NCBI RefSeq assembly: GCF_963676685.1 | Contig: NC_092350.1 | Span: 57,040,001-57,104,000, forward strand | From: Mytilus edulis | Lineage: Eukaryota | Reading direction: 5' to 3' | Length of the DNA stretch: 64,000 bases | Shown here: positions 9,920 through 60,885 of the stretch, piece by piece | How the letters are laid out: the number at the start of each line of letters is the position of its first letter | How positions within the stretch are numbered: position 1 is the stretch's first letter | The notes under the pieces: generated by a model | What the model was told of the DNA's origin: nothing | Databases searched by the model: none | The model's input: the letters and a program-made list of their open reading frames with translations, nothing else | Made by a program: the position numbers and the translations under genes

Positions 9920-10058
9920 TGTCTGTTTTACTTCTTACTTGAGGCTACACAAAAAGTTCATTATATTTTATGTTTCCGGAAAACGCACATTAGTAGGTAA
10001 AGAATATTTTTATGGTATAAGAGGGACGATCGTAAATCGCTGCAAATACCAACATTAA

Positions 10059-10772
10059 GGTAGCACAATACAAAGATTTTTCATCCTCAATCAGACATCT
10101 TTAAACTAATGTTATTCCACTCATTTTTCTTTAAATGTTATAAATGAGGTACCAAAAGAAAGAAGAAGGATTAATCTTTCAAATTGTGATAATTTCATTA
10201 TGACATAATTATTACATAATTAATTATCATGTAATTAGTTGCCATTCTGTGATGTCCATACTTGAATGAATTTAGCTTCTTTGTTCTTCATAGCATCCAA
10301 ATAATTTTTATAGATTCTTACACAATACAGTTTGACCTCCAAAACTGTGTCTCAGATTTTTTCTATTGTATTTTATTCTCTTATAAATCTTCAATGAAGT
10401 TTGCAACATCAATTCATTAGAGACCACTAAATTCAATTGGGTATAAAATTTGTTCTATTGATGTTTTTGGAAATCTGAGACACTGTTTTGGAGGTCAAGC
10501 TGTGTTGTACAAGAATCTATAAAATATTTTGGGATGCTATGAAGAACAAAGAAGCTAAATTCATTCAAGTGTGGACATCACAATAAAGCAACTAATAACA
10601 TAATAATTAATTACGTAATAATTATGTCATAATGAAATTATCACAATTTGAAAGATCAATCTTTCTTCTTTCTTTTGGTACCTCATTTATAAAATATAAA
10701 GAAGGATGAATTGAATTACATCAGTTTAAAGTTGTCTGATTTGGAGTGGAAAAATCTTTGTATTGTGCTACC
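10059..10772. mobile_element. Palindromic non-autonomous DNA transposon (MITE), TTAA target, Kolobok-like
   Basis: TTAA|GGTAGCACAATACAAAGATTTT ... AAAATCTTTGTATTGTGCTACC|TTAA; inverted arms ~300 bp each. Confidence 0.85.
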
Positions 10773-17970: not shown

Positions 17971-18091
17971 ATCAAAATATTTATGATAATTCTCTTTTTT
18001 AATAGGGACCAAATTAGATCGTACAGTAAAGGAGGCCATTAGAAATAGCGGCATCGAAGGTGACAGTTATCTTTATGAGCTTTATCCAAAA

Positions 18092-19016
18092 ATGTGCGAA
18101 CTTTTAATAAACAGCAGAAGTGACAACACAGTCAAATCTTATTTTAATGCTTTTAAAAGATGGGAACGTTTCATATCCCTCCATGGACATGCTGCTTTAC
18201 CAGCTCAACCAGTGCACGTCGCACTATACCTTACAGACTTAGTTAACAACTGTTCCACTTATCATGCGGTATATCATGCAATATATGGTATAAAATGGGC
18301 ACACGAAATCAACAGTTTAAAAGATCCTACCACGAACACTTATGTTAATTCAATACTAGAAGCGTCTAAAAGAGTTGCGCCAAAGAAGACTAACAAGAAA
18401 GATCCAATTACTACAGACGTTTTGATAGAACTTTGTGATAATTTCAAAAATTGGTCTTACCTACTTGTGTTAAGAGATTTGACTATGATGCTACTTTGTT
18501 TTGCAGGTTTCCTTAGATACGATGAACTTAGTTCTTTGCGTTTCCTTGACATTGATATACAAGATTCTTTTCTGATTTTACATATAACTAAGAGCAAAAC
18601 TGACCAATACAGGCAAAGCAATGAGGTTATAATAGCAAACGGTTCTACAATCGCATGTCCCTTTAATATGTTAGTTAAATACACACGTTTGGCTGGTTTT
18701 AGTAGTCACGAGAATACATTTTTATTTCGTCCTATCTACAGGTCAGGAGAGTTATGTAAATTGATAATAAGGATAAGAAACTCAGTTACACGGCGGCTAG
18801 GGAGTGTCTTCTTAAGAGAATTAGAATTATTCGTCATGTCTGTAACATAGGTCTTCACTCGTTCAGATCAGGTGGTGCCACAGTGGCTGCTAACGCAGAC
18901 GTTAGCGACAGGTGTTTGAAAAAACACGGCAGATGGAAATCTGACTCGAGTAAAGATGGTTATATCGTAGACTCCATAGAAAAACGTTTGAAAATTTCTC
19001 AAGTTTTAGGTTTATA
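18092..19016 (+). pseudogene. DIRS tyrosine recombinase, frameshifted
   Basis: FAGFLRYDEL and KSKTDQYR, then in a shifted frame GLHSFRSGGAT...KKHGRWKSDSSKDGY (R-K-H-R-H-Y catalytic set). Confidence 0.9.
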
Positions 19017-19865
19017 GTTTCATATTTGGGATCGTGTACCCTTTCTTTGTATATTTCTATCACGTTCGACGGGCTGTCGGCAAATTCATATTTGTGTTTT
19101 AGTTATATTTAGTTATGGAGTAGAGGCAATACTTGTATTTTCTCGCGGTTCGTATAGTAAAGCGGGGAAATATTGTATTGTTGTTACGTTTTCATAAATA
19201 TTCATAAGGCATGACAAAATTGACCATTCAGAAGACGAATTTTGTGTTACGATATATTGGTGTTTTTCAAGCGCTTCACTTTCTAGCCGTCGTTCAACAT
19301 AGTAAGCTCCGATTGCAATTAAAGTTGTTTTTTCTGATTTACTATTCGTATATGTATTTGCTAATTAAAAGTGTGGTCCGCCACTTTTATCCGGAGATAG
19401 GCTCGAGCATTGGCACGGATACAGGTTTCCATTCATATTCATATATCATGTGAACGATTGTTGGTTTTTCCTGGACGGCCTTGACTATCTATGAAGGGTA
19501 AACATTCAGAAATTTAAGCGAATACACTGTGGGCACATTGATATTTGAAATATTGTATATATATATATGTTTTAATAATTGTTAAAATGTGTACTGTTGG
19601 AAATTATTTGAGATACAAATTAAATACGGCGTCTATCACGTTCGACGGGCTGTCGGCAAATTTATATTTGTGTTTTAGTTATATTTAGTCATGGAGTAGA
19701 GGTAATACTATCTTTTTCATGTTTTTGTATGCATTATTTTTCACGCTATCGCTGTTTTCTTCTTTTTTTTCAGTACAAAAAAATGTTAGCATCTTTTAAT
19801 TTGTATTTTCCTAAACGTCTAAACGTCAGAAGAATAATAAATAATTATGGTATTATAATATAAAC

Positions 19866-22235
19866 GGTATTAGGCTATTCAGAGTAAAATTTGTGGCCAG
19901 TATTGTAGGCCAAATCATATCTATGCAGGCAGTATTAGGTGATCAGGCACGATTAACAACTAGATATTTATATGAATCTATATTGTATAGAGCAAGTTGG
20001 AATGCTAAAGTACTAGTTAGTACAGAAGCACTTAAAGAGTGCACATTTTGGCTACAAAATATAAGAAGTTTAAACGAGACAGGATCTCAATTGTGTCAGT
20101 TGACATTTAATGAAGATCAAGATTATCACTTGTTCTGTGATGCATCTGGCAAGGGTTTTGGTGGTCATTTGACCTCAGGTTCAAAGGACGAATCATTGGA
20201 AATGTTTGGAAGTTGGTCAGTAAATGAACAAAACAAAACCTCAACTTGGCGAGAGCTAGTAGCAGTAAAGAGAGTATTACACAATTTTACAACTGTAATG
20301 AAGGATAAGATTATCCAGGTTTACACAGATAACAAAAACGTAACGCACATACTCAGAGTCGGAGGCCGAAAAGCATCACTACATGAAAACGTGATGCAAA
20401 TACATGAAATTTGTAAGAATCAATCAATTAAATTGAGTTCTGTTTGGATTCCACGTGAACAAAACCCACACGCTGACATGTTAAGTAGACGGTCAGATTG
20501 TGATGATTGGGAGGTACAGGACGAAATATTTACATATCTAGATCACTTGTTGGGTCCTCATAACGCCGATAGGTTTGCACATGACTACAACACCAAGTGT
20601 AAGCATTTCAATTAAAAATATTGGTGTCCAGGAACATCAGGTATTGACACTTTCACAGTTGACTGGAAACGTAAAAATAATTGGCTTGTACCACCACCAA
20701 ATTTGATTCCTAAAGTGTTAAACAAATTAAAACAAGAAAAGTGCAATGCTACTTTAGTTATACCAGAGTGGACCTCTGCACCATACTGGCCTATGCTAAT
20801 AGATGAGAAAGGGAACATGAAAGCTTTCATAGTTGCACACATTTTCGTTCAGGGAGAAAACTTGACCAAGGAAGGCCGCGGTCAAAGTGGTATATTTGGA
20901 CAACAATTTTTGAAATTTAGATTGATTTGTTTAAGAATACAATTTTAGATCAAAATATTTATGATAATTCTCTTTTTTAATAGGGACCAAATTAGATCGT
21001 ACAGTAAAGGAGGCCATTAGAAATAGCGGCATCGATGGTGACAGTTATCTTTATGGGCTTTATCCAAAAATGTGCGAACTTTTAATAAACAGCAGAAGTG
21101 ACAACACAGTCAAATCTTATTTTAATGCTTTTGAAAGATGGGAACGTTTCATATCCCTCCATGGACATGTTGCTTTACCAGCTCAACCAGTGCACGTCGC
21201 ACTATACCTTACAGACTTAGTTAACAACGGTTCCACTTATCATGCGGTATATCATGCAATATATGGTATAAAATTGGCACACGAAATCAACAGTTTAAAA
21301 GATCCTACCACGAACACTTATGTTAATTCAATACTAGAAGCGTCTAAAAGAGTTGCGCCAAAGAAGACTAACAAGAAAGATCCAATTACTACAAACGTTT
21401 TGATAGAATTTTGTGAAAATTTCAAAAATTGTTCTTACCTACTTGTGTTAAGATATTTGACTATGATGCTACCTTGTTTTGCAGGTTTCCTTAGATACGA
21501 TGAACTTAGTTCTTTGCGTTTCCTTGACATTGATATACAAGATTCTTTTCTGATTTTACATATAACTAAGAGCAAAACTGACCAATACAGGCAAAGCAAT
21601 GAGGTTATAATAGCAAACGGTTCTACAATCGCATGTCCCTATAATATGTTAGTAAAATACACACGTTTGGCTGGTTTTAGTAGTCATGAGAATACATTTT
21701 TATTTCGTCCTATCTACAGGTCAGGAGAGTTGTGTAAATTGATAATAAGGATAAGAAACTCAGTTACACGGCGGCTAGGGAGTGTCTTCTTAAGAGAATT
21801 AGAATTATTCGTCCTGGTTGTAACATAGGTCTTCACTCGTTCAGATCAGGTGGTGCCACAATGGCTGCTAACGCAGACGTTATTGACAGGTGTTTGAAAA
21901 AACACGGCAGATGGAAATCTGACTCGAGTAAAGATGGTTATATCGTAGACTCCATAGAAAAACGTTTGAAAATTTCTCAAGTTTTAGGTTTATAGTTTCA
22001 TATTTGGGATCGTGTACCCTTTCTTTGTATATTTCTATCAAGTTCGACGGGCTGTCGGCAAATTTATATTTGTGTTTTAGTTATATTTAGTCATGGAGTA
22101 GAGGTAATACTATCTTTTTCATGTTTTTGTATGCATTATTTTTCACGCTATCGCTGTTTTCTTTTTTTTTTCAACACAAAAAAAATGTTAGCATCTTTTA
22201 ATTTGTATTTTCCTAAACGTCTAAACGTCAGAAGA
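19866..22235 (+). mobile_element. Tandem partial duplicate of the DIRS 3' half (RNase H/MT/YR) plus downstream flank
   Basis: Starts at the sequence matching 16888 (ggtattaggctattcagag). ORFs 19893-20615, 20703-20948 and 21070-21828 are near-identical to copy 1. It has a single B repeat (22035-22111), followed by flank matching 19710-19835. Confidence 0.9.
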
Positions 22236-29380: not shown

Positions 29381-32099
29381 CAAGATTACAACGCAATTGA
29401 CATTTAACATATGGGCACATTAATTTATTCGTTTAGATGATCAGGCTTTGCGGTCAAACGACCTTCGTACGTTTTTTTTGTTGTTGACAAACTAGAAAAA
29501 TAAAAATAAAGAAGAATCCCCTATTTTTTTGGGTTAGTTGTCAAAATATTATTTGAATACATTTTTATGTTACATGTCAAAAAACCTGTCTTACTTCTTA
29601 TAACTAATAAAAAAAACACAGAAATAATAAAAAGTTTCATTATTTTTTTACTTTAAAAAAAAAAATGATTATTTACTGTTACACATTTGCTTAAAAAAAT
29701 CAATCTTTTATATGTTTTAGTTTAACTTCATCGATAAGTGTCAATCAAATAAAAAAATATCACGAAATGCACTGAAATGTGAGATTTCAAAATATTAGTA
29801 GTATACATACCTTTTGAATTTTAAAAAGTTGCAAGATATATCTTTTTTTTAGAAAGAAATTCATTATTTGTTTTCTTTATATAAAACATGTTTAAATACT
29901 GATACACGTCGGCCAGTCTTGGTGCAACAGTTCTTCAATCTGAATAAATATATTGTCAGTGAAAAGCTCAGCAGTTAGATGATATCATATATCTCCAATG
30001 TATCTTATTCGGTGTTAAATCGGTTTAGTTCTTCATTAACACATCTTTGTCACCCACCCCCCTTTTCGAAAAAAAATCAACATAAAGCTCATAATTTAGT
30101 GTGGAAAGAATGGTAGCAAAATTTTGTAATTCGAATATTTAAGCTTTGAACAGGTATCAAGTTATAAGGACTATTGAACATTTTTAGATATCAAGTACAT
30201 GGCTGGGATATTTCAATAGTTCGGATTTGCGTCTATGGCAGAATTGTTTTAATATATTTTTTTTAAATATCCTTCTTTGTGAAATGAACAATACAATTGT
30301 ACAATAAACAGCTTTCTAACAATAAAAAAACCAATACAAAGATCTTTTGAGGCAAATACAAAATGAAGAGGAACCTGCTTTTTATAACCAAATCAAAAAG
30401 AACAACTTCCTACTATGGCCGTAAAATGAAACTGGAAACGTCTTTGTCAAAAACAAAGGTAGACAACCTTACAAGTGTTTGCGATATCTTTTTAGACGTT
30501 TCATTTCTTGTCACAGTAGACAGTTTGACTTGGAATACATCTTTATCCATATAAACCAAACTGCTCCTCCGTCTTTGTCTCATTGTGTCACTTTAAACAG
30601 TAGTATTAAATCGCGGCCAATGGGTATACTGGAAACATTCTGCGATTTGCTGATCCAAATTCTGACGCATAATCGTTGGTTGGGCAGCAATGGTCAATTC
30701 CTGGCCACCAAGTTGGGCAGACATATTTGATTATTATTCAAATCATGTCATACATAAAAGCTCATAATTTAGTGTGGAAAGAATGGTAGCAAAATTTTGT
30801 AATTCGAATATTTAAGCTTTGAACAGGTATCAAGTTATAAGGACTATTGAAAATTTGTAGATATCAAGTATAAAGGCTGGGATATTTCAATAGTTCGGAT
30901 TTGCGTCTATGGCAGAATTTTTTTTATATATTTTTTTAAAATATCCTTCTTTGTGAAATGAACAATACAATTGTACAATAAACAGCTTTCTAACAATAAA
31001 AAACTCTAACTTGTAAAACATATTTGTATACACCGCAAGTATAGGGACACATTATACAATAGAATAAAGCATGCACAGAGTGGGAAGTATGTTTTTCTGG
31101 ATTTCGATTTTATAGTCCACGGCCATGGGTTGCAAAATTATTCAGTAGAAAGTAAGTCATATTTTGGATTCAACAAACGAGACCGATGATCGTATTTAAC
31201 TTCTTTAACTCTTGGAAATTATACAGTCCCAAGGGCTAACTTTACATCGTAATGCTTAGTAATTCTAGGAAGAATGTACGAGTTCATGGAAAAGTACGGA
31301 TACAAAATGCTATAATATAGTGCAATATTTAGAGTAAAATAATTCTTAATAGGGGTTCGCCCACGTCACTTAAAACAACTTGAATTAAGTATCTTTATTT
31401 TTTCATGGGTTGACCAACTTTTTGTTCCTACAAATATAATCAATTTAAAAAAAAGGAATAAAATACAACTGTCATATTCATCAGCTAGAACAGGCATTTA
31501 TAAGGAAGATGTAAGGGATTTTTTTTTATAACGACCTTAACCTTTATTTGTATGACATTTGTTCATAAAAATATTTATAAAACTATGTCCGCAATCCAAA
31601 TAGACACAATTGTCGTACGTGACCATAATCTCGATCCAGAAATCAAAGTTGTGTAGTTTGTACTTTGTAAATACAACTGTTACACAAAACACGCCTCCTT
31701 TTGGAGATATATGCTAATTATAATTTTTATAGTTTTCTTAACCTTCCGGTTCCAAGATATGATATCTATCTGTTCTCCTTGAACAAAATATTGGAATTCC
31801 ACCAGTGTGAACACACATGGATAGTGACCACATCTACATTTTATAAAGACCCAAAGTGAAAGCAATGAAAGAACAGAATTTTAGTTTAAGTTTTAACTCA
31901 AATAAATTAGAGAGATATACATTTTGAAAATATATTCCGCAATGTCCTATGTTTTAACTTTTTTTTAAATATAACTGCATATCAATTGTTCCGTCTATGG
32001 TATACACTTGAACGAAACTAAATAGTAAAGGTGGCACTGTTTGAGTCGAAAGAGGAGTTCCTTCTAGAGTTGTTCAAGTATGTGTAACATCTTTGATGC

Positions 32100-33560
32100 C
32101 ACTGTTTAAAAACACGCCATCATTTGCAAAAATCAGGTATTCGATGGATAAGGCGAAAAAATTTGATTATTCCCGGCGAAACATCAATTGTAACTGCAGA
32201 TGAGCAACTTTTTGGTAATGGCTAAGCAGACTCAGTGGGAATGGCCTGCTTTGTGTGAAGAAAATAAGTTTATCTTAATGTTTGGTGGATTGCACATTGT
32301 AATGACTTGTTATAAAATTCTGGGTGATATATTGCGTGATAGTGGATAGACAATGTGCTCTTACTGAAGCCGATATTGCAACATCTAGAACGGCAGACTC
32401 TTTTTATGTATGGTCAAATGTACAAAGGAATAGAAACGCGCATCAGATAACTGCATGTGTTTTGCTTGAATTGTTATTGTCGGCTTATGAAAGCTAAACG
32501 CAAAAAAATATAATTATGTCATGACTCTGTGACGTTCAATGATTTGATAGACTGGTGTAAGGAAAAAGAGTCACCTCGACTACAGTTTGATTCCTGGCGT
32601 TCAATTATCAATAAAGTTAGTATGCTCATTTCATGAGTCAGACTTTGTACTTTACAAACAGTCCATATAACTCATGATACGGTATTTTTTTTAGTTCGTG
32701 ATCGTGTAATTTATGCTTGATCGTTGCCGACCTATCTCAAGAGATATGGCATCCCTTCCAAACATTACCCAAAGGTTGCAATGGAATTTGAAAATGATAA
32801 TTTCACTGTACAAACGACCAGCAAATTTGTTTTCTTATAGCACAATTGATCAGGCACAAAAACAGAATAATGCAATTGTGAAGGGCGATGTTGGTGTCAT
32901 AGGTTTGACCAAAGATCCCTTTTAGACATTTGGATGGTAGCTGGACCAGGAGTCAGTAGACTAGAAGATGAATTTGAAAGATCTAGTGGTTTCTACAACA
33001 GATGAACGACATAATGAAGACTACGAAAATACGAACAGATATCTTTACAAATGCTTTGTAAAGTGGTGAACGAGTTTGGAAATCCATTTCTAGAAGAGTC
33101 GTCAGATTTGTTAAACAAGTTCCCCTATTAATGAAATTTTGGATTTGGGAGCCGGTAAGATATGTATATAAAATCCAAGATATTGGTCCGAACAATACAA
33201 AGATCTTTTGAAGCAAATACAAAATGAAGAAGAACCTGCTTTTTATAACCAAATCAAAAAGAACAACTTCCTACTATGACCGTAAAATGAAACTGGAAAC
33301 GTCTTTGTCAAAAACACAGGTAGACAACCTTACAAGTGTTTGCGATATTTTTTTAGACGTTTCATTTCTTGTCACAGTAGACAGTTTGACTTGGAATACA
33401 TCTTTATCCATATAAACCAAACTGCTCCTCCGTCTTTGTCTCATGGTGTCACTTTAAACAGTGGTATTCAATCGCTGCCAATGGGTATACTGGAAACATT
33501 CTGCGATTTGCTGATCCAAATTCTGACGCATAATCGTTGGTTGGGCAGCAATGGTCAATT
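32100..33560 (+). pseudogene. Academ-type transposase remnant (unit 1)
   Basis: Broken frames give PGETSIVTADEQLF, AKQTQWEWP..ENKFILMFGGLHIVM..KILGDILRDSG, TEADIATS.TADSF, RNAHQITACVL and IDQAQKQNNAIVKGDVGVIGLT, which I recognise as Academ(X) transposase motifs. Confidence 0.7.
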
Positions 33561-34974
33561 TCTGGCCACCAAGTTGGGCAGACATATTTGATTATTATTC
33601 AAATCATGTCATACATAAAAGCTCATAATTTAGTGTGGAAAGAATGGTAGCAAAATTTTGTAATTCGAATATTCAAGCTTTGAACAGGTATCAAGTTATA
33701 AGGACTATTGAAAATTTGTAGATATCAAGTATAAAGGCTGGGATATTTCAATAGTTCGGATTTGCGTCTATGGCAGAATTTTTTTTATATATTTTTTTAA
33801 AATATCCTTCTTTGTGAAATGAACAATACAATTGTACAATAAACAGCTTTCTAACAATAAAAAACTCTAACTTGTAAAACATATTTGTATACACCGCAAG
33901 TATAGGGACACATTATACAATAGAATAAAGCACGCACAGAGTGGGAAGTATGTTTTTCTGGATTTCGATTTTATAGTCCACGGCCATGGTTTGCAAAATT
34001 ATTCAGTAGAAAGTAAGTCATATTTTGGATTTAACAAACGAGACCGATGATCGTATTTAACTTCTTTAACTCTTGGAAATTATACAGTCCCAAGGGCTAA
34101 CTTTACATCGTAATGCTTAGTAATTCTAGGAAGAATGTACGAGTTCATGGAAAAGTACGGGTACAAAATGCTATAATATAGTGCAATATTTAGAGTAAAA
34201 TAATCATTAATAGGAGTTCGCCCACGTCACTTAAAACAACTTGAATTAAGTATCTTTATTTTTTCATGGGTTGTATCCCATCGAAATAACCAACTTTTTG
34301 TTCCTACAAATATAATCAATTTAAAAAGAAAGGAATAAAATACAACTGTCATATTCATCAGCTAGAACAGGCATTTATAAGGAAGATGTAAGGGATTTTT
34401 TTTATAACGACCTTAACCTTTATTTGTATGACATTTGTTCATAAAAATATTTATAAAACTATGTCCGCAATCCAAATAGACACAATTGTCGTACGTGACC
34501 ATAATCTCGATCCAGAAATCAAAGTTGTGTAATTTGTACTTTGTAAATACAACTGTTACACAAAACACGCCTCCTTTTGGAGATATATGCTAATTATGAT
34601 TTTTATAGTTTTCTTAACCTTCCGGTTCCAAGATATGATATCTATCTTTTCTCCTTGAACAAAATATTGGAATTCCACCAGTGTGAACACACATGGATAG
34701 TGACCACATCTACATTTTATAAAGACCCAAAGTGAAAGCAATGAAAGAACAGAATTTTAGTTTAAGTTTTAACTCAAATAAATTAGAGAGATATACATTT
34801 TGAAAATATATTCCGCAATGTCCTATGTTTTAACTTTTTTTTAAATATAACTGCATATCAATTGTTCCGTCTATGGTATACTATTGGACGAAACTAAATA
34901 GTAAAGGTGACACTGTTTGAGTCGAAAGAGGAGTTCCTTCTAGAGTTGTTCAAGTAAGTGTAACATCTTTGATG

Positions 34975-36435
34975 CCACTGTTTAAAAACACGCCATCATT
35001 TGCAAAAATCAGGTATTCGATGGATAAGGCGAAAAAATTTGATTATTCCCGGCGAAACATCAATTGTAACTGCAGATGAGCAACTTTTTGGTAATGGCTA
35101 AGCAGACTCAGTGGGAATGGCCTGCTTTGTGTGAAGAAAATAAGTTTATCTTAATGTTTGGTGGATTGCACATTGTAATGACTTGTTATAAAATTCTGGG
35201 TGATATATTGCGTGATAGTGGATAGACAATGTGCTCTCACTGAAGCCGATATTGCAATATCTAGAACGGCAGACTCTTTTTATGTATGGTCAAATGTACA
35301 AAGGACTAGAAACGCGCATCAGATAACTGCATGTGTTTTGCTTGAATTGTTATTGTCGGCTAATGAAAGCTAAACGCAAAAAATATAATTATGTCATGAC
35401 TCTGTGACGTTCAATGATTTGATAGACTGGTGTAAGGAAAAAGAGTCACCTCGACTACAGTTTGATTCCTGGCGTTCAATTATCAATAAAGTTAGTATGC
35501 TCATTTCATGAGTCCGACTTTGTACTTTACAAACAGTCCATATAACTCATGATACGGTATTTTTTTTAGTTCGTGATCGTGTAATTTATGCTTGATCGTT
35601 GCCGACCTATCTCAAGAGATATGGCATCCCTTCCAAACATTACCCAAAGGTGGCAATGGAATTTGAAAATGATAATTTCACTGTACAAACGACCAGCAAA
35701 TTTGTTTTCTTATAGCACAATTGATCAGGCACAAAAACAGAATAATGCAATTGTGAAGGGCGATGTTGGTGTCATAGGTTTGACCAAAGATCCCTTTTAG
35801 ACATTTGGATGGTAGCTGGACCAGGAGTCAGTAGACTAGAAGATGAATTTGAAAGATCTAGTGGTTTCTACAACAGATGAACGACATAATGAAGACTACG
35901 AAAATACGAACAGATATCTTTACAAATGCTTTGTAAAGTGGTGAACGAGTTTGGAAATCCATTTCTAGAAGAGTCGTCAGATTTGTTAAACAAGTTCCCC
36001 TATTAATGAAATTTTGGATTTGGGAGCCGGTAAGATATGTATATAAAATCCAAGATATTGGTCCGAACAATACAAAGATCTTTTGAAGCAAATACAAAAT
36101 GAAGAAGAACCTGCTTTTTATAACCAAATCAAAAAGAACAACTTCCTACTATGACCGTAAAATGAAACTGGAAACGTCTTTGTCAAAAACAAAGGTAGAC
36201 AACCTTACAAGTGTTTGCGATATTTTTTTAGACGTTTCATTTCTTGTCACAGTAGACAGTTTGACTTGGAATACATCTTTATCCATATAAACCAAACTGC
36301 TCCTCCGTCTTTGTCTCATGGTGTCACTTTAAACAGTGGTATTAAATCGCTGCCAATGGGTATACTGGAAACATTCTGCGATTTGCTGATCCAAATTCTG
36401 ACGCATAATCGTTGGTTGGGCAGCAATGGTCAATT
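34975..36435 (+). pseudogene. Academ-type transposase remnant (unit 2)
   Basis: Near-identical to unit 1, with the same disabling lesions. Confidence 0.7.
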
Positions 36436-36785
36436 CCTGGCCACCAAGTTGGGCAGACATATTTGATTATTATTCAAATCATGTCATATATAAAAGCTCA
36501 TAATTTAGTGTGGAAAGAATGGTAGCAAAATTTTGTAATTCGAATATCTAAGCTTTGAACAGGTATCAAGTTATAAGGACTATTGATTTTTTTTAGATAT
36601 CAAGTATAAAGGCTGGGATATTTCAATAGTTCCTGTTCTGATATGTCGCGCATCAAGGATCTAACGAAATTCGATAGACAGGTCAAATCTGGTGACCTAA
36701 GTTCACAAACTTTATATTTGAATAACATTAATTTTTCATCCAATCAGAATCCATCTCTTAAACGAGTTTCGGAACATCATTCAAA

Positions 36786-46978: not shown

Positions 46979-47977
46979 ATGTTTTAGATTTTAACGAGAG
47001 AAATTTATGTATTACTGAAAAATTATTACACCAGGGTTTTCGATATCACAAACTAGTCAAAACATTTACTAAATTTTATCATCGGTATAAAGACATTATT
47101 CGTAAATATAGCTCAACTTGCAGACTTTTTATACATTCGGGTATTTCACATCCAATTTTTTATGGAAATATTCTTTATAAAGCTCAAAGGTGTCAGTATT
47201 CACCTCAGAAACTTACAAAACCTTTGAATAGACTTATTAAGAAGGGATATAATTACGATACTGTTGTCAAGTCATTAAAGATTGCATATTTTGGCGTTAA
47301 TATTGAGTCACTGATAAGGTCTTTGCGTCGGAACTAAACACATTTATTCTAAAAACAGTTGTTGGCATGACACGGGTTATGTTCTTCTCATATATGTTAT
47401 GATGGTATGATACTAAACCCCTAACGGGAAGGATTGTGCCTGATGTTCATATGATGAAATCATAATCTTTCAGTCAGTTTAATTGAAGTCTGGAGCTGGC
47501 ATGTCAGTTAACTGCTAGTAGTCTGTTGTTATTTATGTATTATTGTCATTTTGTTTATTTTCTTTGGTTACATCTTCTGACATCAGACTCGGACTTCTCT
47601 TGAACTGAATTTTAATGTGCGTATTGTTATGCGTTTACTTTTCTACATTGGTTAGAGGTATAGGGGGAGGATTGAGATCTCACAAACATGTTTAACCCCG
47701 CCGTATTTTTGCGCCTGTCCCAAGTCAGGAGCCTCTGGCCTTTGTTAGTCTTGTACTATTTTAATTTTAGTTTCTTGTGTACAATTTGGAAATTAGTATG
47801 GCGTTCATTATCACTGAACTAGTATATATTTGTTTAGGGGCCAGCTGAAGGACGCCTCCTGGTGCGGGAATTTATCGCTACATTGAAGACCTGTTGGTGA
47901 CCTTCTGCTGTTGTTTTTTTATTTGGTCGGGTTGTTGTCTCTTTGACACATTCCCCATTTCCATTCTCAATTTTATT
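46979..47977 (+). mobile_element. 5'-truncated Naiad-type Penelope-like copy inserted in the transposase gene
   Basis: Reverse complement of ~476-1474; encodes VLDFNERNLCITEKLL...SLIRSLRRN*. Confidence 0.88.
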
Positions 47978-49087
47978 TATATACATGTATATCATTGTAC
48001 AGGATGATAAAGATAGTATGTCAAAAAGTAAGTTAACATATATACCATGTATACATGTACAGTTCGAGTTGTATGTACTTTTAAATGTCATTATGACATT
48101 CTTTCATCTGGGACTGCTTCGGTAAAGTCAGAAATGTTTTCGTAATTTAAGTCCCAGGGTTAAATGAAATCAATAACATATATGATAAAAGTTCTCATAA
48201 TGCATGTACCAAATATACTGGTATTGTACATGTACATGTTGTACACATCATGCACATGTACAAACAGGAATGTATTTATGTTTTAAAGCAAACAATTTTC
48301 TTATGAAGGCTATATTTGAGGGGTTGGACATGGGGTTCCCCGATTACAAATATAGCATATTTTTTTAGCACAGGTTTAAAGAACTTATGTACCTGGCATG
48401 TACTTCTCCTTCCAGTTCCCTCATTTCCATGTTCACTTCACATGTTTACACCTAGTCCAAATAATTATGACTTCTGGAAAGACTATTTTTGCTTTGACGA
48501 CTTCATGCGACGATGTAAGGCGTAAAAAAAAATATAATAGCTTTTCAAGATGTCATAATTATTTGGACTAGTTTACACCCACACATATCTTATATTTATC
48601 TTTGAACCTACCAGAGGAAAGACTTGTATCATATTCTGTTGGTCTGGGCACAATAGCTACAAACTGCTTGACTATAGTAGCTGGTTCATGTGGTTGAGTA
48701 ACACCTGCACCCATCAATGGCATCGTACACATAGCGCTAAATGAAAGGAATTTTAACTGCATGTTTCACAATTACTTGAGATGGAAATGTTTTCTGCTGT
48801 TTCTGTTTGACAGATGAGAATGGGGACCTGAGAAGTCTTTTCTCTACCGTTTTTAATCTCTTTGGACAGGTCTGATGGGTTCGAATTAAAGATGATTTTT
48901 ATTTTCTACTTCTTCTTCTTGCCGAAAAACCTTCTCCACGATTTTGTAACATTTTGTGCAAAATCCATTATTTTTATCCTCGTCTGTAACATCGAAAGAC
49001 GGTATTATATGGAAAGCCTCAGCTGTCATATATTAGAGATTTACAAAACTTTATGCTGAAGCTTAAAATGTAAAGTTAAGACAGCGT

Positions 49088-50530
49088 GATGTTGAATTAA
49101 GTCATCAAAATGCTAACTCTGAATTACAATATGCTAAGTTGAATCTGCGCAATGTTGACTTGCAATGACAAGTGCTGTAGTCGTGATAGTATAATGATAA
49201 ATCACGATGTTGTGATGATATGCCGAACACACGTTACGTTGAGTTTAAAGTAAATGATGTGAAGTTGACGTTGCATGATGTTAGCTTGCAGATTGATAAT
49301 GCTCAGTAATCCACTTCGATTGCTATGATAACAAATAAATTGAACAGCTACAATGTATGGTGCTGACTTGATATTAATAAATGTTTAGCTGAAATAGTAC
49401 GATGTTATCTCATTGTGATATTGCGATAGGTCTATCATGCAATCTGTTGATTTAAAACACCATGATGTACAGTTGAAAGTACATGATGTTAGGTTAAGAT
49501 AACACGATGCTACACAACAATATTGAAACGAAAGGCCCACCATACAATGTGTTGACTTAAAACAACACGATGCAGCGTTGAAAGTACATGATGTTAAGCT
49601 AAGATGACATGTTGGTTTATCAGTATAATGTCGCGATGGGCTTACCATACAATATGCTCACTCGAAACTACAAGACGTACAGTTGAAATTTTGTAATGTT
49701 ACGCTATGATAGCATGATGTTATATCAATTTAATGTGACGATGGGCTTACCATCACTATGCTCACTCGAAACTACAAGACGTACAGTTGAAATTTTGTAA
49801 TGTTAAGCTAAGATTGCATGCTATTAAATCAATATAATGTCACGCTAGGCTTATTACACGATATGCTCATTTAAAACTACACAACGTACAGTTGAAAGTA
49901 TGTGATGATAAGCTATGATAGAATGTTGTTATGTCATTTGAATGTCACGATAGGCTTACCATACACTATGCTCATTTAAAACTACACAACGTACAGTTAA
50001 AAGTATGTGCTATTGAGCTATGATAGCACGATGTTATATCATAATAATACCACGATAGGCTTGCCATACGATATGCTCATTTAAAACTTCATGACGTACA
50101 GTTGAAAGTATGTGATGTTGAGCTATGATAGCACGATGTTATATCATAATAATACCACGATAGGCTTGCCATACAATATGCTCATTCAAAACTTCATGAC
50201 GTACAGTTGAAAGTATGTGATGTTGAGCTATGATAGCACGATGTTATATCATAATAATGTCACGATAGGCTGGCCATACAATATGCCCATTCAAAACTAC
50301 ACGACGCACAGTTGAAAGTACGTGTTGTTGAGCTACGATAGCACGATGTTATATCATAATAATATCACGAAAGGCAAGCCATACAATATTACCATTCAAA
50401 ACTACACGACGTACAGTTGAAAGTACGTGTTGTTGAGCTAAGATAGAACGATGTTATATCATTATGACGTCACGAGAGGATTATCATACAATGTGTTGAC
50501 TTGAAACTACACGATGTAAATTTGAAGTAG
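49088..50530 (+). repeat. 21-bp-periodic array with 105-bp higher-order units (left arm)
   Basis: NATGYT core every 21 bp from 49088; tt/ggccatac recurs at 50061, 50166 and 50271 (105-bp period). Confidence 0.85.
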
Positions 50531-51841
50531 TTTGGTCTTGACTTGAAACAGTAAAATGTTAAGTTATAAAAACAGAACGTTAAGTCAAAATAAAACAATG
50601 ATAGGATGATATATACCTGTGCAGAATTGAAGTTATTTGGTGTTGTCTTCGAATAAAGTGCAAATGTTAGATCGTTTTGATGTTAAATTTAAAGACAATA
50701 ATGATGCTTAAAACATTACAGAATTACATGTATGTGAATTGAAACTGCAATTCTATGGAAAAGAATGAGGAAAAAATCCGCAGGATTTTTCTTCTTCATT
50801 TGCAAGTTGATGAATATTGATAACATTTTACTCAAGAGGCAAAAGGATATTCAAAAAAAGTTTTTCCATGTTTTCTTAGTCGGATTTATTTTTTATGATT
50901 CAAACCCAGTTTTTTTTTACGAACAATATTTTAGAAAATATTTAATTATCTATGTTGAGTGTTGATATATGCAACATAGTGTTGTCGCTTTATACGACTT
51001 ATGACTGTAAGGATCAAATTTCTACTCATATAAAATCACATCTATTAAAAGTTATCAGATAATTTGTATCTACCACTCCCCTTTTCCGCGAAATAAAACG
51101 TAGGACTTGGAGGATCAGATCTATATGAGAATGTGACCCCCGGGCCTTGATAGAGGTATCTGAAAATTTGAATGTTCTTTTCCCCGAAATAAAACAATAG
51201 AATCTGGACTTTATCAAAACCGATGCGAATACGATTTCCATAGAATGTCAGAGACGGTTTGTCGACTAGTTTGTTTAAAATTCGGCTGGTCAAGCAAAGT
51301 ATGACTTGTAACAAAGCAGTTTTTTTTTCATATTCATATCACATGTTCTCGTCCTGATATGCATGTAATATTTGCCACTGTACGTAAAGCGCACTCTTTT
51401 CCCCTAAATAAAACCATAAAAGAATGATTAATCAAAACCGATGCTATTTGAATGTCCATAGATTGTCATAGACGGTTTGTCAACTAGTTTGTTAAAAATT
51501 CGGCTAAGCAAGCAAAATATGTCTTGTACAGAGCCAATTAAGATTTATTCATATTCGTATCACACTTACACACTCTCGTCCTTATATGCATGTTATATTT
51601 GTCACTGTACACAAAACACAAATACATTATTATCATTTTTTTTTGTGTGTAAATGAGCCACATCTACCTATACCTATTTTGAGCACGTTTATAGATTGAA
51701 CACCCTGTAATTCATGTTTATTGGAGTTCCTCGAAAATTAAACACATTTCTTCTTTATTTGCAAAATCGCCAAGTGACGGGTGCCAACTACGAAACAGGA
51801 TCTGCTAACCCTTCTGGAGAATCTGAGGTAGACCTTTTTTA

Positions 51842-52125
51842 GGGAGCTACCATTTGATTATTATAGGGGGGGCTAGGATGAAATTTGAAAAAAATAGGCA
51901 GGACAGGAGTTTTGAGTAAAAAAAAAAAGGCAGGATGAGACACTTGCAAAAAAAAAAAGTCAGGATGACAATTATTGTAAAAAAAGTCAGGATAAACTAA
52001 AAAAAAAAAAACAGGACCGGATAGAGTGAAAAATAAAAAGGCAGGACAGAGATTACAACTAAAAAAAAATGCAGGACAAAATTTTTCATCCTAGCCCCCC
52101 CCATAAAAATCAAATGGTAGCTCCC
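51842..52125. mobile_element. PIF/Harbinger-like MITE
   Basis: TTA|GGGAGCTACCATTTGATT ... AATCAAATGGTAGCTCCC|TTA; internal repeats of (A)n-G(G/T)CAGGA. Confidence 0.8.
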
Positions 52126-52434
52126 TTAGTGTTCCGTGTTGCTCAGTCTTTGGTTTTTTATGTCGCGCTTAATATACTGTTGTTTGGCTTTTGATCTTCT
52201 TTCTAAGGTTTATTTCGGCTGATGAGTTTTTGTCATAACATTGTCAGTTTGGTTAAGAGTTTTATTATTCCTTTTGTATCTTTCGACTTCTTTGTCCAAT
52301 GATTTGTGTGTATTTCTATTCGTTTCTTTTCGATTCTCCCCTCCCCTGAACAGTATAATAGATAGATAATTGAAAACGGAAACCCTTTTCAGAAAAGGAG
52401 ATATACAAGTCACTCGACGTGACTGTTTTTTTTT

Positions 52435-52647
52435 NNNNNNNNNNNNNNNNNNNNNNNNNNNNNNNNNNNNNNNNNNNNNNNNNNNNNNNNNNNNNNNNNN
52501 NNNNNNNNNNNNNNNNNNNNNNNNNNNNNNNNNNNNNNNNNNNNNNNNNNNNNNNNNNNNNNNNNNNNNNNNNNNNNNNNNNNNNNNNNNNNNNNNNNNN
52601 NNNNNNNNNNNNNNNNNNNNNNNNNNNNNNNNNNNNNNNNNNNNNNN
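52435..52647. other. Assembly gap (N run)
   Basis: 213 consecutive N. Confidence 0.99.
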
Positions 52648-53071
52648 CTACAATCTAATCAAAGCAATACCAAAATAATTTTTGCAGTTTATCAAATTTT
52701 ACAGATTTTTTGATTTTTTCTTTTCATTGAAAACACATATAAATAGAGAGAAGCTGTAAAGAACCAAGAAACTTACTATGTACAAGAACATGTGTGACGG
52801 AAATCATTTATTTGCTTCTTATTATAAGTTGTAGGGAGGCATTGTCCATTAATGGATTTACAAATAAAAAATAAATAATTCCCCGAGTGGATATATTGAT
52901 AAACCTGGGCACTACATCTTATTTGGTGCTGGAATAATGGTTGAAACTGCTGTCAATGATGGGTTTTTTTTTAGAAAGTTGACGATTTAGACTGGAGGCT
53001 CTATGTCAAATTTCATTAGGTTTCATAGACTTCATGTAGGAGTGAAAAGTAAACAACAGAATCTAACATAA

Positions 53072-53370
53072 TTTGTGTGTTTTTGGTTGGCCCCATACAG
53101 TAGGATACTTCCACCTATCGATTCATCCGTATAGATACATTCAAATTTTCTAGATTATTATTCAATTAAAAAATTTCATTATATTGTTTGGTGTTGGGTT
53201 TTTTTTTTAGGGGTGTTTTATTTGTGTGTTTGGGTTGGCCCCATACAGTAGGATACTTCCACCTATCGATTCATCCGTATAGATACATTCGAATTTTCTA
53301 GATTATTATTCAATTAAAAAAAATCTTTATATTGTTTGGTGTTGGGTTTTTTTTTTGGAGGGGTGTTTTA
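53072..53370. repeat. Two-copy tandem duplication of ~149 bp
   Basis: ggttggccccatacagtaggatacttccacctatcgattcatccgtatagatacattc occurs twice in tandem. Confidence 0.9.
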
Positions 53371-53986
53371 CAGTTCTACTCTTTAGCGCATCATTTATCA
53401 GATCTGTTGGGTTTTATTTTTAGATTAAGTCCATATTATTTTCTTTTATTTTTGAGTAAGGGGGTTGTATTAACTAAAATTATCTGATAACTCTGACACA
53501 GATGTGGAGCTATAAGCTTAAACTTTGGTAGATCCTTTCCCACTGAGAGCATTTGAATTTTGTACGAGGAGATAACACAGATTAAGGCATAAGACTTTGT
53601 ATTTCCTGTCAATTAAACATATTTTTTTCATCGTGTAAAATGAATTTATACGAGCGAAAAAATAAATAATCACATGAGTATTATTATAAAAAGCCGTTTA
53701 ATCTTTACAAAAATTAAGAGTTAAAAAGCTCATTATGTATATTCTGTATGAATAAACGGGAATATGGGTTATGCGTAACTGAGACAGCAATTCAACGTCG
53801 ATTTTTTTTTTATCAAAATGCATAGTGAGGGTGACACACTTAACAGAATTCATCAAAGAATTGTCATTAAATTCGAATTCTTAAAAATTGACGAAAAACA
53901 TAAGTTATCGCCTTCGGCTCAGGGGATATAAACTCTAAGCCGGGAATGTCACAGTATATACCCTGTCTGAGACCTGAATAACACAT

Positions 53987-54430
53987 ATATTACGGATTAC
54001 CCCTGACTTAATGTTATTTTCCAGTGCAAGTATTTGTTGACAACACATATATGTTGAAAAACCCAACCTGATATGTTCGGCATACGTTCAGGATTTTCTG
54101 ATTTGCTGTGAACATAATTTTATAGTGTATGTAATAATTTATAATAACACTTTTAGCATTAAATTTAAGTATTAAAAAAGTGTAAATTGCGTGATTTTGT
54201 ATTAAAAATGTATTTTTGACTAACGCACGTCATTATTTTCCCTCTGTGAGCCTCTGACAGACCCATAGCTTTTGACTACGTCACATAGTAACCAGTGTTA
54301 TGATGACGTTTTTGAGGTTCCAATTGGGGATAAAAACGTCGTATATACCCCGGCAGTTTCCCGAATATATACTGACATCTCTGTGTTGTTATCCAATCAC
54401 AAACCTCGACACATTTGTAATCCGTAATAT
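53987..54430. mobile_element. Possible small non-autonomous element with short TIRs in a TA context
   Basis: ATATTACGGATTAC ... GTAATCCGTAATAT perfect 14-bp inverted repeat. Confidence 0.45.
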
Positions 54431-54939
54431 ATATATATATTAACACAAAACATAGATAAATATTTTCTTAAATATTGTTCATAAAAAAAAGTCTGGGTTT
54501 TAATCATAAAAAAAATTCCAAACTAAACATGTAAAAAATCCGGCAAAACTGTACTTAAGTGTGTCTATATAGCGATCAATATTTGTTTTGCTTTATGGAT
54601 TTATGGAGAACTTTCTTTGTATATCCTTTTGCTTTTTGAGTTAAATTTCATTAATATTCATCTACTTTCAAATAAAGAAGAAAAAATCCTGGGGATTTGT
54701 CCCTCATTCTTTTCCATAGAATTGCAGTTTCAATTCACACAATTCTTTAATGTTTTAAGCATCATTATTGTCTTTCAATTTAACATAAAAACGATCTAAC
54801 ATTTGCACTATATTCGAAGACAACACCAAATAACTTCAATTCTGCACAGGTATATATCATCCTATCATTGTTTTATTTTGACTTAACGTTCTGTTTTTAT
54901 AACTTAACATTTTACTGTTTCAAGTCAAGACCAAACTAC

Positions 54940-56272
54940 TTCAAATTTACATCGTGTCGTTTCAAGTCAACACATTGTATGATAATCCTCTCGTGACGTC
55001 ATAATGATATATCATCGTGCTATCTTAGCTCAGCAACACATACTTTCAACTGTACGTCGTGTAGTTTTGAATGCGCATATTGTATGGCCAGCCTATCGTG
55101 ACATTATTATGATTTTACATCGTGCTATCATAGCTCAACATCACATACTTTCAACTAAACGTAATGAAGTTTTGAATGAGCATATTGTATGGCAAGCCTA
55201 TCATGGTATTATTATGATATAACATCGTGCTATCATAGCTCAACATTACATTCTTTTAACTGTACGTTGTGTAGTTTTAAATGAGCATATATATATATAT
55301 AGTGTATGGTAAGCCTATCGTGACATTCAAATGACATAACAACATTCTATCATAGCTTATCATCACATACTTTCAACTGTACGTTGTGTAGTTTTAAATG
55401 AGCATTGTGTATGGTAAGCCTATCGTGACATTCAAATGACATAACAACATTCTATCATAGATTATCATCACATACTTTCAGCTGAACGTTGTGTAGTTTT
55501 AAATGAGCATATCGTGAGGTAAGCCTAGCGTGACATTAAATTGATATAATAGCATGCAATCTTAGCTTAACATTGCAACATTTCAACTGTACGTCTTGTA
55601 GTTTCGAGTGAGCATATTGTATGGTAAGTCCATCGTCACATTAAATTGATATAACATCATGCTATCATAGCTTAACATTACAAAATTTCAACTGTACGTC
55701 TTGTAGTTTCGAGTGAGCATATTGTATGGTAAGCCCATCGTGACATTATACTGATAAACCATTATGATCATGTACTTTCAACGTTGCAACGTGTTGTTTT
55801 AAGTCAACACATTGTATGGTGGGCCTTTTGTTTCAATATAGTTGTGTAGCATCGTGTTATCTTAACCTAACATCATGTACTTTCAACTGTACATCATGGT
55901 GTTTTAAATCAACAGATTGCATGATAGACCTATCGCAATATCACAATAAGATAACATCGTACTATTTCAGCTAAACATTTATTAATAACAAGTCAGCACC
56001 ATACATTGTAGCTGTTCAATTTATTTGTTATCATAGCAATCGAAGTGGATTACTGAGCATTATACATCTGCAAGCCAACATCATGCAACGTCAACTTCAC
56101 ATCATTTACTTTAAACTCAACGTAACGTTTGTTCGGCATATCATCACAACATCATGACTTATCATTATACTATCACGACTACAGCACTTGTCATTGCAAG
56201 TCAACATTGTGCAGATTCAACTTAGCATATTGTAATTCAGAGTTAGCATTTTGATGACTCAATTCAACATCA
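54940..56272 (-). repeat. Inverted copy of the 21/105-bp array (right arm)
   Basis: Reverse complement of the left array, with unit-number differences and a (TA)n expansion near 55288-55301. Confidence 0.85.
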
Positions 56273-56807
56273 CGCTGTCTTTACTTTACATTTTAAGATT
56301 CAGCATAGAGTTTTGTAAATCTCTAATATATGACAGCTGAGGCTTTCCATAGTATTATTTTTTTCACATTGTTCACTCTTACATCTGTCAAGCGAAGTTT
56401 ATGTTTGAAAAGTTTTACCTCATGTTTTTCACCGGTAGATGATATTTCAGTGTGAACAAACGAAAATGCACACAACAAACACACATTTTGACCATCTTAA
56501 ACACGTCGAGGTGTTAAAACACTTTCAGTTGCCATCATTACAGTTCATTTATAAATCGATGCGTGTTTTCACTGGGCGCAGCCATTTTCCAATATTTTTA
56601 TTTATTTCCATTCGAGTATGCTTGGATTAGAACTATTAATTACAACCGGAAAAATCGAAAGGACTAAAAATGCCAAAGAGAGACGATTTCTGATTGGTTG
56701 GCTCGATAGGTCACCAGATTTGACCTGTCTATCGAGTTTCGTTAGATCCTTGATGCGCGACATATCAGAACAGGAGCAATTAAAGGATTTAATTTTAATT
56801 AGATTGT

Positions 56808-57670: not shown

Positions 57671-58365
57671 TATCTGATTGCATATATACCAGATTACATG
57701 CAGGGTATCCTAAATTTCAATATTTTGATAGATTTTTTTTCGATTAATTTGATTATCTATGATATAATGATGAATGATTTTTAAATCTCTAGCGGCACAT
57801 TGAAAGCAGATGCACGACAAGGACAAGATAAGAGTACATGCATATTAGCCGTATTAAATACTAAACCTACTCATTTAAACTGAATGTAAACATGATATGT
57901 TGCAATGCAATGTCAAGATATCTGGACACATCATTCCGACTCTGAGCCGATAATTGTTTCTATCTACTTCTTTATTTGGCGTTCTTAAACAAATAAGCAA
58001 AAAAAAACGGATTTTAAAGTCTTTGGTTTTAACAAACGACCGCTCGCATTCGATGCGAACACGCTACCGTTGCAGCCCTTATTATGTTTAAGATTTCTCA
58101 AATACGCATATTGTGTTTTTCCTTACAGAGTCCAGTGAAACTCAATGTGCGTTAAACAAGAAAAGTAACAAGTTATATTTCTTTATTAATTGACTTATTG
58201 TTTTTAACTTGTCATACATATCAAGTAAAAAAAGTTCTTCAGCTTGTCGCCTGCAATTTGATTAAATGGCTCTGTAACAGTTGGCCCTTAAGTTGATCAT
58301 TGTGAAGTTGACCCTGGTGAATCTAGTTCTGGTCAAACAGGCACTGGTACAGTTGGCCCTACAGT

Positions 58366-59516
58366 TTACCATTGTGAAGTTGGTCCTGTGGTAACTAGTT
58401 CTGAGACAAAACCCACTGGTGTTGGCCCTGCAGTTTGCCCTGCAGTTGGCCCTGGTGGAGTTGTCTCTGGTGAAGTTAGTTCTGGGTAATAACCCACTGG
58501 TGTTGGCCCTGCAGTTGGCCATGATGGTGTTCGGGCTGATGTAACTAGTGCTGAGACAAAACCCACTGTAAAATACAGGTACATAAATATTACAATAACT
58601 TTAAGGTAACAAAATAGTACTGAATATTAAAAGTAGATTTCAAGTACTGCAGATTTTTGGTACAGAAATAGTACCTATGCAAAAGGAGCTGTGTTTCAAC
58701 CAACGCGGACAGTTCGATACTGTTCACACAATTCGCTTGCGTTCAACTATGATCCTCTGATTTATTCAATTAATGTTCAGAATGTATTTTTTTTAATTTT
58801 CACTTGTACACATCAACGACATACTGAACTCTTTTAAAAGGTACCGAAAATAAAGAATTGAATGCAAGATAATTGCCCGAACAGTACTGACTTGATATAA
58901 TGTTGAATCGGTGTTTTTCATTTCGAATTCTTCTCAATCCACGAAAATTGGTATCCACGAAAACAAATGAATCCACAGTATTCGTTCTTCCTAGGTATTG
59001 CTCACTGAAAAGTCACGTAATGCAAGTAATAACAAGTACAATGAATTCTACATTTTGTAACATTTTTTTGGCAGCCTGATTAAGATATGCTAACATTTAA
59101 AGACAGCAGTCATTTATTTGTGATTATTACTTTTTTAGAAAATAAAACTGCTTAAATTTTAAAAGAAATCTTGTCATATTTATATGTCTTCGTCGAAGCA
59201 TGTGATGGATATCTCAATCCTAAAATGGAATAAACGCGTGTCGAAGGTTTTACTAAAACCTACGGGTCGAGAAAAAAAACGTGTATATGTCCATGCAATT
59301 TATGCATTATATAATACTCATACCGAAATATATAAAGAAACGTAATGTGGTCCATGTAATACTGATGTAAAATCACCATAAGTAATACAAATGTAACCGA
59401 AATAAGAATCAACAAAAAAAGGTAAATATTGAAGATATTTAGCAGGGTTATGATGTTTTCTTACCTTCAACGAACAGTAATACTAGGCATACACATAAAC
59501 AAACATAAATCTTCAT
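58366..59516 (-). CDS. Secreted Pro/Thr/Gly-rich repetitive peptide (83 aa) with CRP-I-like signal exon; may be a pseudogene
   Basis: Exons 59516-59465 (MKIYVCLCVCLVLLFVE, G|GTAAG) and 58565-58366 (VGFVSALVTSARTPSWPTAGPTPVGYYPELTSPETTPPGPTAGQTAGPTPVGFVSELVTTGPTSQW*). Repeats continue past the stop with further stops; AATAAA near 58187. Confidence 0.6.
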
Positions 59517-59641
59517 TCTTCTCTTATTCTCTGGTACTGACTACAAACATATATTTTTTTTTTTATATATCTGTATTGTTATTAAGCTTTTTTTTTTTAG
59601 ATTAACGACGTCTTGTGTAGACAATTGCAAACCTTAATTAA

Positions 59642-60211: not shown

Positions 60212-60885
60212 TTAACATAAATGTGTTTTTAATCAGCACATGGTGTTCGATTTGGTGTTGACATAACATGTCTATTATTAAGAGTTGAGCTGTTTCACAC
60301 AGTCATAAATTCTATTATACAATACCATTTTTTGGTTTTGAATAAAGGCAACAGTAGTATACCGCTGTTCAAAACTCATAAATCCATGGACAAAAAACAA
60401 AATCGGGGTAACAAACTAAAACCGAGGGAAACGCATTAAATATAAGAAGAGAACAATTAAAACAGTTTTGCGCTAAATTTGAAATATTGTCAGAAAATTA
60501 AATATAGTTGTTAAAGAAATGCTCTGTTCTGTTAACCAAGACTGATTCGACTTTTTGTCTATATCTAGACTCAACTTCCAGAATCCCCGAACAATCTTAA
60601 ACAATGATCAAAACCAAAACCGCAAAACTAGTTATAAACATCTCTAACATAAAGAAATGTAAACCAATCAAAACAAACCAAACAACATCGTGTACAACAA
60701 CAATAACACAAACAACATAAGAACACAACACGAAAAACAGCAAAAAAAACACTGAATTCATGTCCCCAAGCTCAGGACCAGTACATACACAATCTAGGGG
60801 GTGTAAATATGTTGAGAGATGACAAACCCTCTTCTAACCTGAATACATTGAAGAAGGACACAAAAACAAGACAATACACGAGGAA

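Follow-up and report, generated by a model that had tools for sequence, protein, structure and literature searches.

The CRP-I peptides are knottin pre-pro-peptides whose described features are a signal peptide, a pro region, a dibasic site and a C-C-CC-C-C cysteine array (Gerdol 2015, PMC4558851; Gualandi 2023, PMC10138031), and in the text of the earlier of these papers a sequence is called CRP-I-like when one main feature is missing and significant similarity is kept, with E below 1e-5 (Gerdol 2015, PMC4558851). One described group, mCRP-I lambda (MgCRP-I 23), has a tail free of Cys and rich in Pro and Thr behind a CRP-I signal peptide; as it is reported, the pro region and the KR site are retained, and the 32-residue tail is without tandem units. 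Mytilus also has the myticalins, which are described as Cys-free and encoded by three exons with a phase-1 second intron, and as cationic peptides bearing a dibasic site and an anionic tail (PMC12294457). Among other animals, the notothenioid antifreeze glycoprotein, which has its origin in a trypsinogen-like protease gene, is presented as a case in which a gene for a secreted protein was duplicated and the duplicate recruited non-coding sequence to code for repeats (PMC5850335), and an 'export exon' hypothesis has been put forward for frog skin peptides (PMC13128954).

With these systems we compare a locus in a stretch of 64,000 nucleotides of Mytilus edulis DNA (the window). The locus holds a real, transcribed gene of chimeric make-up, in which a splice junction made by a transposon can be seen; its parts, in window coordinates unless otherwise given, are as follows:

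Beyond the window, minus strand: exon 1 with a CRP-I-type promoter, donor after G000:C7:57108275, 8.7 kb upstream and separated from exon 2 by an intron of 8,734 bp.
60326..60386, minus strand: alternative upstream exon, seen in RNA run X17 and, by repeat depth, mostly inside a high-copy repeat.
59465..59540, minus strand: exon 2, a 24-nt 5' UTR and the 52-nt coding part of a CRP-I signal peptide, with its ATG at 59516 and a phase-1 GT donor.
58566..59464, minus strand: intron 2, 899 bp, GT..AG, without a CRP-I pro exon (nhmmer).
58565..58694, minus strand: truncated MITE, the left 130 bp of a 400-446-bp TA-flanked element, giving the pyrimidine tract and the AG acceptor.
58366..58565, minus strand: coding part of exon 3, three units (69, 81 and 69 bp), with the stop TAA at 58368-58366 inside the third.
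58179..58365, minus strand: 3' UTR of exon 3, the remaining repeat array, with three in-frame stops and AATAAA at 58187-58182.

The gene is like those of the CRP-I peptides in its promoter, its exon 1, its 17-codon phase-1 signal exon and its position and orientation within the cluster, and unlike them in having three exons rather than four, an acidic rather than a cationic product and an acceptor supplied by the MITE. As to the features that define CRP-I, the conserved signal peptide, encoded by a phase-1 exon of 17 codons, is present, whereas a pro region on its own exon is missing (the RNA goes straight to the repeat exon), as are a KR/RR dibasic convertase site (the exon-3 product has one isolated Arg) and the C-C-CC-C-C array, there being neither a Cys after the signal peptide nor a remnant of a Cys exon. 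It shares with lambda a CRP-I signal peptide running into a Cys-free, Pro/Thr-rich tail, but the pro region and KR that precede a lambda-type tail are lacking. From the myticalins, as they are described, it is set apart by an acidic product (net charge -2 and pI 4.25 for the predicted mature part), by the lack of a dibasic site and of an anionic tail on a cationic peptide, and by a 5' half homologous to CRP-I. Unlike the antifreeze glycoprotein, with its proven function and many copies, this gene is single-copy, has a predicted function, takes its acceptor from a transposon and shows no sequence relation to it; the route resembles that of the 'export exon' hypothesis, except that here the breakpoint and the donor of the acceptor are visible and the cassette has not moved. 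We found no description of the gene in the literature, where Figure 6 of PMC10138031 or the 2015 supplements may mark the locus as an unassigned pseudogene, and three motifs of the gene are absent from the whole CRP-I supplement (PMC10138031).

The window is part of a large CRP-I cluster. In the 464 kb around it (C7:56.94-57.40 Mb) together with two smaller regions there are 23 CRP-I-type signal exons besides the one at 59516-59465. The chimeric gene has a Q-like gene on one side and the first multi-domain gene on the other, all three on one strand, and a lambda gene lies in the same cluster about 105 kb away. The two other signal exons of the window, at 26895 and 9919, are also on the minus strand; the gene at 9919 matches the published sCRP-I B2 in all three parts (signal, pro and mature), and that at 26895 resembles group Q (both against Table S3, PMC10138031), group labels other than B2 being assigned by eye. 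The published three-gene cluster on chromosome 7 was considered as the identity of the locus and ruled out, as the genes here are of B2, Q-like and multi-domain types.

Several other features of the cluster were seen. In the Q-like gene (window 26895-23520, minus strand) a single signal exon and a single pro exon precede three exons with Cys arrays (25749, 24738 and 23520), two of them almost identical, so that its last exons are duplicated and may be alternative ends. There is an orphan CRP-I pro exon on the opposite strand (window 2006-2071, plus strand, E 5.7e-8), and one two-domain CRP-I gene is present in four near-identical tandem copies (L027 and L038-L040, G000:C7:57140-57170 kb). A foldback-like element at 49008-56351, with inverted 1.4-kb arms of 92% identity and 105-bp tandem arrays inside, produces a spurious Cys pattern at 49564. 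Recent direct duplications lie at 16888-22111 and 30332-36632 (2.2 kb, 97%; 3.4 kb, 98%), a 1-kb inverted copy (98%) relates 476-1473 to 46979-47977, and a 0.7-kb palindrome (10055-10776) is immediately upstream of the B2 signal exon.

The first-pass annotation had seen a third 52-bp phase-1 signal exon on the same strand as the two at 26895 and 9919, preceded by an acceptor, and had assigned it to CRP-I. The exon is indeed there at 59516-59465, as 17 codons followed by a phase-1 intron, with an AG acceptor before exon 2 at 59540. Against a position profile of the 23 CRP-I signal exons exon 2 scores 32.4 bits, within the leave-one-out range of the family (24.6-65.1), and none of 20,000 codon shuffles of it attained that score; these shuffles keep the hydrophobic composition and serve in place of a set of unrelated signal peptides. 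Run over the 462 other ATG..GT candidates with an open frame, the same profile gave 41-53 for three more CRP-I-like exons and -10.7 for the next candidate. A genome-wide search with exon 2 returned at least four matches (a lower bound, the first pass having given four candidates), namely itself and, at E 7.6e-8 to 1.7e-6, three signal exons, which belong to H-type and J-type CRP-I genes and to a degenerate five-Cys copy. The signal-exon tree leaves the parent group unresolved, with 12 of 21 inner branches open. Judged by its profile score, exon 2 is a true CRP-I signal exon. One CRP-I-like gene, in which the last exon has five Cys and no pro exon was matched (L021, G000:C7:45810161-45811752) has a signal exon and donor flank among the closest to those of the chimeric gene.

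The similarity extends further upstream. RNA run X20 has a loose end whose place on the genome is 8.7 kb away, at a GT donor, which locates exon 1, and the promoter together with exon 1 matches a profile of 13 CRP-I upstream regions, built with the chimeric gene left out, at E 3.6e-12. In exon 1 (L024 4275-4345, minus strand) there is a start-stop uORF, and the TATA box opens with A, not T. A second 5' end is seen in one of the four RNA runs (X17), where the exon at 60386-60326 is joined by 60326>59540; it ends with an ATG in frame with the ORF and would lengthen the product by nine residues. With E-values for exon 2 and promoter below the published limit, the gene is CRP-I-like by the 2015 definition in the form quoted above, notwithstanding the failure of three of the four defining CRP-I features.

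Since the homology to CRP-I takes in promoter, exon 1 and exon 2, and all three are in place within the cluster and co-oriented, the 5' half is not a transplanted exon; on these matches it is that of a CRP-I paralogue inherited in place, of which the 3' half has been replaced. The idea of exon shuffling, with the secretion cassette reused as a moved exon, consequently has to be given up in the form in which it was first proposed, as it is the 3' half that changed, by way of the MITE acceptor. Long-range shuffling in the wider sense, with either the signal exon or the repeat exon copied in from another gene, is very improbable: no relation between the repeat exon and those of CRP-I could be detected, as this would predict, but the 5' half and promoter lie in place inside the cluster, and neither the genome, searched as DNA and as protein, nor some 550 kb of the cluster, in which the top score was no better than shuffled units give, yielded a donor of the repeat, although such searches use word filters that old copies can escape.

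The junction 59465>58565, predicted earlier from the sequence, is present in three of the four RNA runs examined (out of six containing the locus), from three studies (P10, P11 and P13), and the locus is thus transcribed; in the remaining case (X15) exon 3 is covered up to the acceptor and the joint is not listed. The contig of X17 extends to 58179, just beyond the AATAAA at 58187. These RNA data are contigs of plankton and water metatranscriptomes, from which level, strand and tissue are unreadable; all six runs are of this type, with word shares of 0.08-0.13, and runs without library records may hide tissue data. They give only a hint of larval expression. None of the three outcomes named beforehand as fatal to the original proposal was found, these being a splice to a different Cys-rich exon, a poor CRP-I score (with the shuffles as stand-in for unrelated peptides) and an untranscribed locus.

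Exon 3 is in frame after the phase-1 intron. As had been noted from the sequence, this next in-frame exon has no Cys, no KR and no pro exon before it, and encodes PTAGPTPVG repeats, followed after the first TAA by three more in-frame stops. The stops are at 58335, 58299 and 58290, and the encoded repeats are Thr/Pro/Gly-rich and without any dibasic site. The units of the array, of 69, 81, 69 and about 72 bases, are 63-78% identical over 65 aligned columns, and TRF reports periods of 72 and 81 with scores of 185 and 219. The GC content by codon position in the frame used is 0.60/0.69/0.19, a coding-like periodicity, and the repeat, though T-poor, has 4-5 stops per 100 codons in two of its three frames.

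Searches for homologues of the repeat returned little but the locus. Among proteins of near length one of three candidates matched, this being the sequence itself; among longer proteins none of 279 did; a search of 1.84 billion representatives gave only itself; and in its own genome the DNA search found one match (the locus) and the protein search one extra match at E 2.8. Pfam gave no hit for any of seven queries (six frames and P0001), and Rfam none. In these searches the repeat is single-copy. Aligned with the last exons of lambda and of 18 other CRP-I genes, exon 3 gave nothing significant, the lowest of the 19 P values being about 0.03-0.04.

The phase-2 frame of the array, which is the phase used by CRP-I last exons, is open for 101 codons with nine Cys (window 58564-58263, minus strand). 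A frameshifted multi-domain CRP-I exon was considered on this account and rejected for now, as such an open frame arises by chance with a probability of 0.034 in a given frame and of 0.10 in at least one of three, and it is opposed also by the 19 alignments, by the lack of a homologue and by RNA that shows the phase-1 splice only. An antisense Leu/Val-rich frame, LRR-like by eye, was rejected since Pfam is blank for it; its appearance arises because codons on the other strand end in A/T.

The acceptor of exon 3 lies in sequence of another kind. The 130 bp upstream of the repeat belong to a dispersed element with 1,530 candidate copies, the best other copy being 96% identical. At 10 of 14 loci full copies are 400-446 bp long with inverted ends, nine of these ten having TA on both sides. 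Short length, terminal inverted repeats, TA flanks and high copy number are the marks of a MITE, of which the window holds the left 130 bp only, and from this match the acceptor is MITE-derived. The MITE also holds an ATG in frame with exon 3 (window 58584-58566, minus strand), so that gene callers predict a signal-less ORF of 72 aa (P0001, P0002).

The MITE match ends at CAGT, a motif that also opens each repeat unit, giving a 4-bp microhomology. The junction between MITE and repeat is bridged by contigs in the four DNA runs examined, out of 14 high-share ones (by 33 letters and by 70 in organisms B and C, and by 29 in each of the remaining two runs), and is therefore not an assembly error. 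A microhomology-mediated deletion is the simplest, and a likely, reading of this fusion. As no undeleted allele was seen in the runs examined, the order of insertion and deletion is inferred. Profiles found no credible remnant of a pro exon, a Cys exon or a CRP-I 3' UTR in the 61 kb from the Q-like gene to the next multi-domain gene, where the best matches are at E 0.94 and E 1.3, while over all fetched DNA the same profiles match 35 pro exons, 68 Cys exons and 18 3' UTRs.

These observations suggest a course of events in which a MITE would have inserted into intron 2 of a CRP-I gene then still under selection, and a deletion would have fused it at the common CAGT to a downstream triplet-patterned repeat, removing the pro and cysteine exons; the phase-1 frame would have happened to be open after the fusion. 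A less probable alternative is that the repeat was already the coding last exon of a lambda-like gene, behind a pro exon and KR, and that the deletion took the pro exon and the first units and kept the frame. Both halves of the gene look older than the MITE (units 63-78% identical and a signal-exon pS of 0.60, against a divergence of 4-5% for the MITE), the array begins flush at the junction, its periodicity is coding-like, and lambda, as published, shows that CRP-I can turn Cys-free and Pro/Thr-rich. Such an ancestry is opposed by the 19 last-exon alignments already described, by the absence of homology to a CRP-I 3' UTR and by the absence of a purifying pattern among the units. The suggestion that the gene gives a new peptide type, of predicted translation and O-glycosylation, is weakened, as Cys-free, Pro/Thr-rich members, in the form of the lambda group, are already on record.

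The ORF has 83 codons, ends in the last exon and encodes an acidic product. By the (-3,-1) rule for signal peptidase cleavage, the only basis for the site, a cut is predicted after residue 23 (V-S-A), which would release a mature part of 60 residues and about 6.1 kDa, composed of 22% Thr, 20% Pro and 12% Gly, with a single Arg and no Lys. The first unit alone has Ala at a position where the other three have Glu, and this change makes it the first (-3,-1)-compatible site. The expectation that the product would be Cys-free and S/T/P-rich was borne out, as half of the predicted mature part (30/60 residues) is S, T or P, with 18 Ser/Thr and 12 Pro. GalNAc-transferases prefer S/T with Pro at -1, +1 or +3, and 12 of the 18 S/T have Pro at one of these positions; the antifreeze glycoprotein is O-glycosylated at Thr. 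AlphaFold, run on the single sequence and hence weak evidence, found no fold (pLDDT 60.7, pTM 0.14), so that by sequence and predicted fold there is an S/T/P-rich, low-complexity, unfolded region behind the signal peptide, as in mucin-like proteins. The product is predicted to be a secreted, disordered and likely O-glycosylated peptide which, without convertase site or disulfides, would not act as a knottin. Its most likely role would be that of a small mucin-like glycopeptide in surface mucus, and its expression would be driven by the inherited CRP-I promoter, possibly in larvae.

Whether this product is maintained bears on a further, possible though doubtful, explanation, in which the locus is a transcribed CRP-I relic whose promoter and signal exon outlive the MITE-linked deletion, with the first usable acceptor spliced and the 83-codon ORF incidental. 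The allele changes look neutral: outside the deletion zone exon 3 shows 6 non-synonymous changes in 136.7 sites and 2 synonymous ones in 58.3, which gives, from very small counts, a ratio of about 1.3 and thus no purifying signal (two further changes inside the zone, where the alignment is ambiguous, were excluded). Between units, codon positions 1 and 2 vary more than position 3 (24/43 versus 6/22 columns, p 0.037), contrary to what a conserved protein would show. Pseudogenes are common in the cluster, and the locus trips three published pseudogene flags, namely missing exons, missing cysteines and no dibasic site (PMC10138031, as set out there). No homologue was found, and the MITE copy, at 4-5% from its relatives, would allow a relic to be young.

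Against a relic, no frameshift, nonsense or splice-site change is listed in eight runs or in the allele P0002 (organisms A, B and C), there is one precise splice and a polyadenylation signal, the plausible cleavage site is confined to the first unit, and a frame is kept in a T-poor repeat of which two frames are nonetheless broken by stops. The first stop shows no differences in the four RNA and four DNA runs, P0002 ends at the same residue as the reference ORF, and the stops that follow fall within transcribed 3' UTR, ahead of the AATAAA at 58187; the stops are thus not evidence of a dying gene, as they had been taken to be. The single length polymorphism, a net 18-bp deletion in three of the four RNA runs, keeps the frame, although in-frame indels are expected regardless in a triplet-patterned array. 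Of two neighbouring T/U-like CRP-I copies (L063 and L065, G000:C7:56967073 and 56949269), each has stops in the pro or signal exon, and for L063 no Cys exon was found within 10 kb downstream.

The signal exon differs from the family majority at 15 positions, at the top of the family range (5-15), and is still intact. In 50,000 trials of neutral simulation an equally acceptable signal exon was kept in 3.7% and an equally hydrophobic one in 0.08%. Its pN/pS is 0.51, compared with 0.42-0.88 within the CRP-I family. This constraint may predate the deletion, because pS to the paralogues is 0.60 whereas the MITE has diverged by only 4-5%.

The reading that we favour, tentatively and at somewhat short of an even chance, is that a CRP-I paralogue kept its promoter, exon 1 and signal exon and came to be spliced through a MITE acceptor onto a Thr/Pro-rich repeat, likely by a microhomology deletion, and that the mRNA yields a predicted secreted and likely O-glycosylated peptide. 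It is supported by the splice, the signal-exon score, the promoter match, the intact signal exon, the stops in the T/U-like neighbours, the cleavage-site Ala and the frame-keeping indel; counted against it are the allele ratio, the codon-position pattern of the units, the TATA change, the uORF and the possibly greater age of the signal-exon constraint. The fuller account built upon it is a more doubtful one: a gene birth with a visible breakpoint, in which MITE insertion and a 4-bp microhomology deletion may have turned a knottin gene into one for a secreted mucin-like glycopeptide by capture of a non-coding repeat, common to several mussel lineages and expressed in planktonic larvae.

In superfamilies of secreted peptides one conserved signal exon is often combined with unrelated mature regions, and the step at which these are swapped can seldom be observed. 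In this gene we can name the source of the splice site, the microhomology and the exons that were lost, so that a comparison of Mytilus alleles can date and order the events. The published criteria, as set out in the sources cited, would call this locus a pseudogene, yet its spliced mRNA is present in polyA libraries of three studies; in these clusters, then, annotation based on cysteines overlooks live transcripts. If true, the birth of this gene would be an invertebrate parallel to the antifreeze-glycoprotein route and would give the 'export exon' idea a concrete mechanism.
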